Assembly (NCBI RefSeq): GCF_056712565.1
Contig: NZ_CM160072.1
DNA: 64,000 nt
Strand: one strand, 5' to 3'
Shown here piece by piece: positions 45,738 through 46,137 of this stretch; positions within the stretch are counted from its first letter, which is position 1, and each line of letters starts with the position of its first letter. The translations under genes and the position numbers were made by a program. Under the pieces are notes generated by a model. It was not told the DNA's origin, did not search any database, and worked only from the letters and a program-made list of their open reading frames with translations.

Positions 45738-46137
45738 TGGGGACCTTGTTGGTTTTGTGTTTAACAATATTTATACAAGCACAGCTTTACAGGGGAGACA
45801 ATGGAAAATTTTTCTTCCGGATATAAATACGTGGCAGATCACATTTTGAACTGAAACTCAGGCAATAAAGCATCATCACCTGAAAGACGGTCAGATTGTT
45901 GACAGAGTGCGCCTTATTCATGTCGAATACAGCGTAAACACCTTACCCTACCAACCGCACCATCACTGTTTCCGGCAACATTTATTGCCGCTTTTGTTTA
46001 CATATTCTGCCGCTAAACAATTCCCCATTCCTGGCGTATATCTGGCTAACATTCATCAATGTGATAGATTCCTCTCCCGCATTTATGGGAATGCGTAGTG
46101 ACTTATTCTAATTATTTTTATAAAAGCATCCGTGATA

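Follow-up and report, generated by a model that had tools for sequence, protein, structure and literature searches.

The stretch of E. coli DNA analysed here is without a TisB/IstR locus between ilvB and emrD. The window, by which we mean the whole 64,000 nucleotides taken from contig NZ_CM160072.1 of RefSeq assembly GCF_056712565.1, does contain the ivbL-emrD address of tisB/istR, but the address is empty. We consider it very probable that this is a B2-type E. coli chromosome with a lineage-wide empty ivbL-emrD allele, from which the ancestral module was removed and in which a 157-bp patch is the scar. TisB is the best-documented chromosomal toxin tying the SOS response to ciprofloxacin persistence and colicin protection. 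In K-12, the TisB response comprises membrane depolarisation, a drop in ATP, ciprofloxacin persistence and colicin tolerance. The K-12 tisB/istR-1 type I toxin-antitoxin locus was reportedly described by Vogel et al. in 2004 and Darfeuille et al. in 2007; the window has the address, the ilvBN promoter, ysdE and emrD in common with it, but differs in having no TisB ORF, no IstR-1/2 and no LexA box.

The interval from 43845 to 47322 runs in the order ilvB, ivbL, a 400-bp gap and emrD, and uhpA and ilvN are also in the window. The features on which the following argument draws are these:

43845-45533, minus strand: ilvB, a gene of the window, annotated in a 100%-identical RefSeq record.
45639-45737, minus strand: ivbL, the ilvBN leader peptide gene (ORF; RefSeq ivbL; tblastn 100%), left border of the spacer.
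45738-46137: the ivbL-emrD spacer, 400 bp between the start codons of ivbL and emrD.
45738-45814, no strand: the promoter-proximal spacer of ilvBN, 77/77 bases as in K-12, with invariant columns in the Escherichia alignment.
45801-45854, plus strand: a 17-codon ORF, MENFSSGYKYVADHILN, seen on translation; not a gene.
45815-45971, no strand: the B2-type patch of 157 bp, delimited by blastn breakpoints and multiple alignment, in place of the 690-bp tisB/istR module of K-12.
45815-45875, no strand: the left part of the patch, homologous to the regulatory DNA upstream of ilvBN but diverged from it.
45828-45843, no strand: the CRP-like site TACGTGGCAGATCACA, a putative ilvBN CRP site.
45876-45971, no strand: the filler of about 96 bp, 15 nt followed by an apparently decayed REP/BIME-type element.
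45973-46000, plus strand: a terminator-like hairpin with a T-run (hairpin scan), directly right of the patch and kept in all Escherichia alleles.
45982-46056, minus strand: ysdE, an annotated small-protein gene (RefSeq; tblastn 100%), identical to K-12.
46138-47322, plus strand: emrD, the MFS efflux pump gene (ORF and annotation), right border of the spacer.

A preliminary description of this DNA had put the spacer at only about 400 bp, and it measures 400 bp (45738-46137), against 933 bp for the equivalent interval of K-12 MG1655, which holds istR (IstR-1/IstR-2), tisB and ysdE. The same description had seen neither a TisB-like ORF nor a CTGT-N8-ACAG box in the spacer, and both observations stand. 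A tblastn search with K-12 TisB found no 29-aa hydrophobic TisB ORF in the 64-kb window, the matches being noise (best E = 1.7) and the spacer empty; as a positive control, the query recovers TisB at 66-100% identity in K-12 and at dozens of loci. Covariance-model searching for IstR, which had been proposed as a check, gave no Rfam match to IstR-1/IstR-2 (RF01400) at E <= 10 in 43000-48000, and blastn with istR was also negative; the istR model scores 150 bits (E = 7e-33) on the K-12 locus. Scanning the 64 kb for CTGT-N8-ACAG showed that the LexA box controlling tisAB and istR-2 is absent from the spacer. The sole perfect box, CTGTATATAAACACAG at 2961-2976, lies far from it, just upstream of dinD (3010-3846, plus strand), whose ORF scores 507 bits on the NCBIfam DinD equivalog; since the pattern thus works in the window, it serves as an internal positive control. 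A diverged but intact tisB/istR was also sought and is ruled out by tblastn with TisB, by blastn with istR and the tisAB leader, by Rfam with its control and by the LexA-box scan; nor did the alignment to K-12, the other check proposed, reveal one.

That alignment specifies what the preliminary description had called absence or replacement: 157 unalignable bp stand for 690 bp, between flanks at 99.4%. By blastn, window 45500-45814 corresponds to 2252-2566 of the K-12 locus (L002) at 99.4% (315 bp), and window 45972-46300 to L002 3257-3585, again at 99.4% (329 bp). The 690 bp between them in K-12 (L002 2567-3256), which comprise istR, the LexA box, the tisAB leader, tisB, the terminator and a REP, have no counterpart in the window. 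To the left of the patch, 45738-45814 is nearly invariant across Escherichia; to its right, the terminator-like hairpin, ysdE and the emrD upstream region are identical to K-12 at 166/166 positions. Over the non-coding DNA at 45534-45814 and 45972-46137 as a whole, identity to K-12 is 99-100% (202/204, 77/77 and 166/166), and the ilvB and emrD coding sequences beside the spacer are at 96.8-97.5%. The higher identity of the non-coding flanks could reflect strong regulatory constraint or recent homogenisation.

In a multiple alignment with other Escherichia, the patch divides into two parts. The left part (45815-45875) is colinear with L002 2567-2627 but strongly diverged from it, with blastn reaching 76% over 33 nt at the same offset, and contains GATCAC-TTTG-ACTGAA, invariant throughout the Escherichia aligned. 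It ends in AATAAAGCATCA, as against AACAAAAAACCCC in the tisB-positive alleles, and these last bases may be what remains of the IstR terminator tail. The filler that follows (45876-45971) has no counterpart in the tisB-positive alleles examined. It bears a flank motif, TCAGATTGTTGACAGAGTGCGC, at 45891-45912 and a REP-like core at 45922-45952; both the E. albertii filler and a canonical REP between uidC and ydgA in K-12, together with the latter's TCAGATTGTTGACAAAGTGCGC flank, can be aligned to it. Partial matches of about 82% at patch-query positions 77-134 occur in about 2,000 genomes, and the window holds no second copy of the patch.

The canonical REP consensus has 0 matches in the window at 3 mismatches, so the REP assignment rests on the uidC-ydgA alignment. 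In a test of the REP palindrome (GCCGGATG...CTTATCCGGCCTAC), the element aligns to canonical REP plus flank, and its predicted fold avoids the REP stem. The aligned segment, 45891-45952, covers both the REP and its left-flank motif, but the palindrome has suffered from many changes, G-to-A and others (GTCGAATACAGCGTAAACACCTTACCC vs GCCGGATGCGGCGTAAACGCCTTATCC), and the element is best read as a decayed copy. It is also of another kind than the REP of the K-12 allele at this place, which is Z-like, whereas that of the window is a Y-like REP/BIME.

The CRP-like site in the left part deserves separate consideration. Taken alone, the match at TACGTGGCAGATCACA is at chance level, a scan with the CRP consensus giving 200 matches vs 218 expected. 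The core of the site, AAAATGCGTCAnnGATCACA, has been kept ahead of ivbL in genera such as Citrobacter, Enterobacter, Leclercia and Kluyvera, and ivbL is a known CRP target by genomic SELEX (PMC3105977). Because of this conservation across genera and the documented targeting of ivbL, TACGTGGCAGATCACA (45828-45843) can be regarded as the putative CRP site of ilvBN, lying outside the toxin module. All tisB-positive Escherichia carry a derived version of this presumed site, TGAGGGGTTGATCACG (L002 2575-2600 vs window 45823-45848), and the version common to B2 and E. albertii, TACGTGGCAGATCACA, is nearer that of other genera (TGCGTCAnnGATCACA) than the K-12 type is. The ilvBN CRP region of the window is altered, its TCACA half-site being, if anything, nearer the consensus.

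The empty allele is widespread. E. coli O2:K1:H7 APEC E18055 matches the window at 100% over 45400-46500, and in RefSeq the corresponding interval of that strain has ilvB, ivbL, ysdE and emrD annotated, but not tisB. We surveyed 5,426 complete E. coli genomes with thresholds of at least 80% coverage for module and patch. The patch was found in 1,058 of them, to which, as to the window, the B2 label is given from strain names and from PMC9040746, and the K-12 module in 4,151. Any match to the REP-free 577-bp istR-tisB core was found in 4,359 genomes and none in the remaining 1,067/5,426. The patch (1,058 carriers) and the core (1,067 genomes without it) are nearly complementary, which argues for a fixed lineage allele. 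Among the carriers are Nissle 1917, whose patch is 99.4% identical, and the 100%-matching APEC O2:K1:H7; patch variation among the carrying E. coli genomes is 0-3.2%. As a separate matter, in about 208 complete E. coli genomes the match to the istR-tisB core stays under 80% coverage, e.g., 59-66% in two pieces, and in a few others only the right half of the spacer finds a match, at two places. These partial patterns point to further independent lesions or insertions at the locus.

The finding is already known. Passages of Su et al. (2022, mBio, PMC9040746) give tisB/istR as absent from phylogroup B2, E. albertii and clade V, with CFT073 as an example and with complex deletions and insertions between ilvB and emrD. 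Bustamante and Vidal (2020, PMC7232551) found about 600 nt missing in the AIEC B2 strain NRG857c. The window is a member of this published B2 tisB/istR-negative ilvB-emrD allele: the position, the gap of about 0.6 kb and the E. coli-type flanks are the same as in CFT073 and NRG857c, and nothing material differs. The empty state is thus, going by these passages and by PMC7232551, a condition of the whole B2 lineage and not the peculiarity of one strain. Since TisB is absent from phylogroup B2, results on TisB-dependent persistence obtained in K-12 are not transferable to the clinically dominant B2 lineages (ST131, ST95, ST73, Nissle), a consequence also already in the literature.

Taken step by step, the history that we propose would start from an ancestral module of IstR-1/2 sRNA genes, a shared LexA box, the tisAB leader, a 29-codon tisB, a terminator and a Z-like REP. 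The whole module would have been lost, its place being taken by a filler of about 96 bp with a decayed Y-like REP/BIME at its end, and the ilvBN upstream region with its CRP-like site would have survived, strongly diverged. The scar would have entered the B2 ancestor, or persisted in it, as a short patch common with E. albertii. Having no tisB, istR or LexA box, the cells should be unable to make TisB, judging from published TisB biology, and carriers of the allele would be without the membrane depolarisation and persistence that TisB mediates under LexA control. ilvBN, ysdE and emrD would each keep their own signals.

Besides the base-level description of the scar, there is one point at which our analysis goes beyond the literature, namely a common origin of the scars in B2 and E. 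albertii. The comparison was made with one E. albertii genome (L006, NBRC 107761), whose positions 2678-2831 match the patch at 83% over 145-153 nt. In the alignment, the two patches have the same junction columns. Both contain the same decayed REP/BIME, with shared derived substitutions vs canonical REP, and in the left 60 nt they have in common a haplotype unlike that of all other Escherichia aligned. Over 5 kb, sites at which B2 equals E. albertii but not K-12 number 52 in the 250-bp bin of the patch and 0-9 in the other bins. The E. albertii tisB/istR-negative allele thus has the junctions, a homologous filler and the CRP-region haplotype of the window. It differs by 17%, including a 1-nt indel, and in its flanks, which are E. 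albertii-like there but E. coli-like in the window (99-100% to K-12). From these sequence comparisons, the resemblance suggests that the two scars share one origin and are not independent losses.

How the scar came to be in both lineages can be stated with less confidence. We think it somewhat more probable than otherwise that the B2 empty allele is the same ancient scar that E. albertii carries, either brought in as a recombination patch of less than 200 bp or retained as a trans-species polymorphism. Entry or persistence in the B2 ancestor as a short patch is proposed because only the 157 bp group with E. albertii and the flanks are E. coli-like. The patches are 17% diverged between B2 and E. 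albertii, and the neighbouring spacer 4-8%; with the patch exceeding its surroundings in this way, the transfer or split would have to be old. If this account is true, the loss of TisB reached the major extraintestinal-pathogenic lineage of E. coli through transfer of an allele, and of the three independent losses counted for Escherichia in the literature two remain.

Alternatively, B2 and E. albertii may have lost the module independently, with the likeness of the scars being coincidental or due to parallel deletion between the same repeats. This is how the lesions are read in passages of Su et al. (PMC9040746), as independent and lineage-specific, and the 17% divergence of the patches would agree with it, as would the existence of a third lineage (L004) with its own deletion and different junctions. 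Independent deletions, however, would have to account for identical junction columns, for a homologous 96-nt filler absent from every tisB-positive allele examined, for fillers that share derived changes vs canonical REP and for a left 60 nt with a haplotype unlike that of all other Escherichia. We therefore regard independent loss as unlikely and keep to a common scar.

B2 is an early-branching phylogroup. One could thus suppose that the empty site is primitive and that tisB/istR was inserted later into non-B2 E. coli, all the more as E. albertii is also without the module and as the CRP-region haplotype of B2 and E. albertii is nearer the outgroup genera than the K-12 type is. We looked for the module in an EmrD scan of species-representative genomes, which yielded 80 loci (E. 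fergusonii, E. marmotae, S. enterica sensu stricto and an E. coli representative are not among them). E. whittamii and three further species-level genomes of Escherichia have both tisB and istR between ivbL and emrD, and so do Citrobacter, Salmonella diarizonae, the Klebsiella oxytoca group, Raoultella, Kosakonia, Enterobacter, Leclercia, Atlantibacter and Trabulsiella. The presence of the module at ivbL-emrD in many genera of Enterobacteriaceae makes it ancestral there and the B2 state a loss. Primitive absence, which we hold to be quite improbable, is opposed by this shared position in other Escherichia and about ten other genera, by the apparent IstR terminator tail that the patch keeps and, in passages of Su et al. 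(PMC9040746), by a tisB/istR phylogeny that follows the strain phylogeny.

Several observations from the same scan concern the spread of the module and its loss elsewhere. Among loci L010-L083, TisB at 66-79% together with istR/tisAB-leader matches occurs in the Klebsiella oxytoca group, Raoultella, Kosakonia, Leclercia, Atlantibacter, Trabulsiella and several Enterobacter; examples are L046 1313-1399, L048 1296-1382, L052 1781-1867, L058 1329-1415 and L029 2009-2095. Compared with E. coli, these genera have an extra 1.1-1.7 kb between tisB and emrD. The spread is wider than the Citrobacter, Salmonella, Escherichia and E. cancerogenus listed in passages of Su et al. 2022 (PMC9040746). Escherichia sp. 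MOD1-EC7003 (L004 2550-3000) has its own partial deletion, with junctions that differ from those of B2: istR and TisB codons 1-16 are lost, codons 17-29, the terminator and the Z-like REP are kept, and the deletion junction falls exactly at the IstR terminator tail. Kluyvera, Pseudocitrobacter, Yokenella and several MAGs likewise have no tisB/istR at the ivbL-emrD address, and some of their spacers are about 300 bp; the module-free loci are L011, L021, L025, L027, L034-L037, L051, L057, L059 and L077. Judged by this distribution, loss of the module seems recurrent across Enterobacteriaceae.

The patch itself might still be thought to hide a diverged functional tisB/istR, or another small toxin or sRNA. 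Short ORFs do occur in it, of 17 aa (plus strand) and 44 aa (minus strand), and on the minus strand 45857-45884 forms a weak AU/GU-rich hairpin with a short T-rich tail, TTTCAGTT, which is not conserved in E. albertii. The ORF MENFSSGYKYVADHILN had been singled out in the preliminary description, and it is indeed present at 45801-45854; that it was the only short ORF is incorrect, as the spacer has several of at least 20 aa, including ysdE (45982-46056, minus strand). As a gene, the 17-aa ORF is rejected: a TAA at codon 8 shortens it to 7 codons in L084 and L085, two further E. coli genomes with the patch, the aligned K-12 version stops after 9 codons, and the ORF overlaps the conserved ilvBN promoter/CRP region. 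The 44-aa ORF (45787-45921) is rejected as well, being put out of frame in E. albertii by a 1-nt indel read from the alignment. A structured RNA in the patch was also considered and discarded, since neither strand folds better than shuffled sequence does (z-scores +0.30 and -1.18); no Rfam family matches the patch (43000-48000, E <= 10). TisB similarity, Rfam matches and a LexA box being nil, the ORFs interrupted or shifted among relatives and the folding at the level of shuffled sequence, a hidden gene is highly improbable. With no sign of function in it, the patch is most fittingly called a scar.

There is practically no chance that the spacer is short through an error of sequencing or assembly, for instance because a repeat collapsed, given that an identical or near-identical allele is present in 1,058 independently finished genomes and that the allele is also described in CFT073 and NRG857c. 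As a minor observation further along the window, the yidJ sulfatase gene (48583-50075, minus strand) is broken up, its two ORFs having 354 aa and 137 aa, and the annotation of the 100%-identical RefSeq genome gives it as a frameshifted pseudogene.
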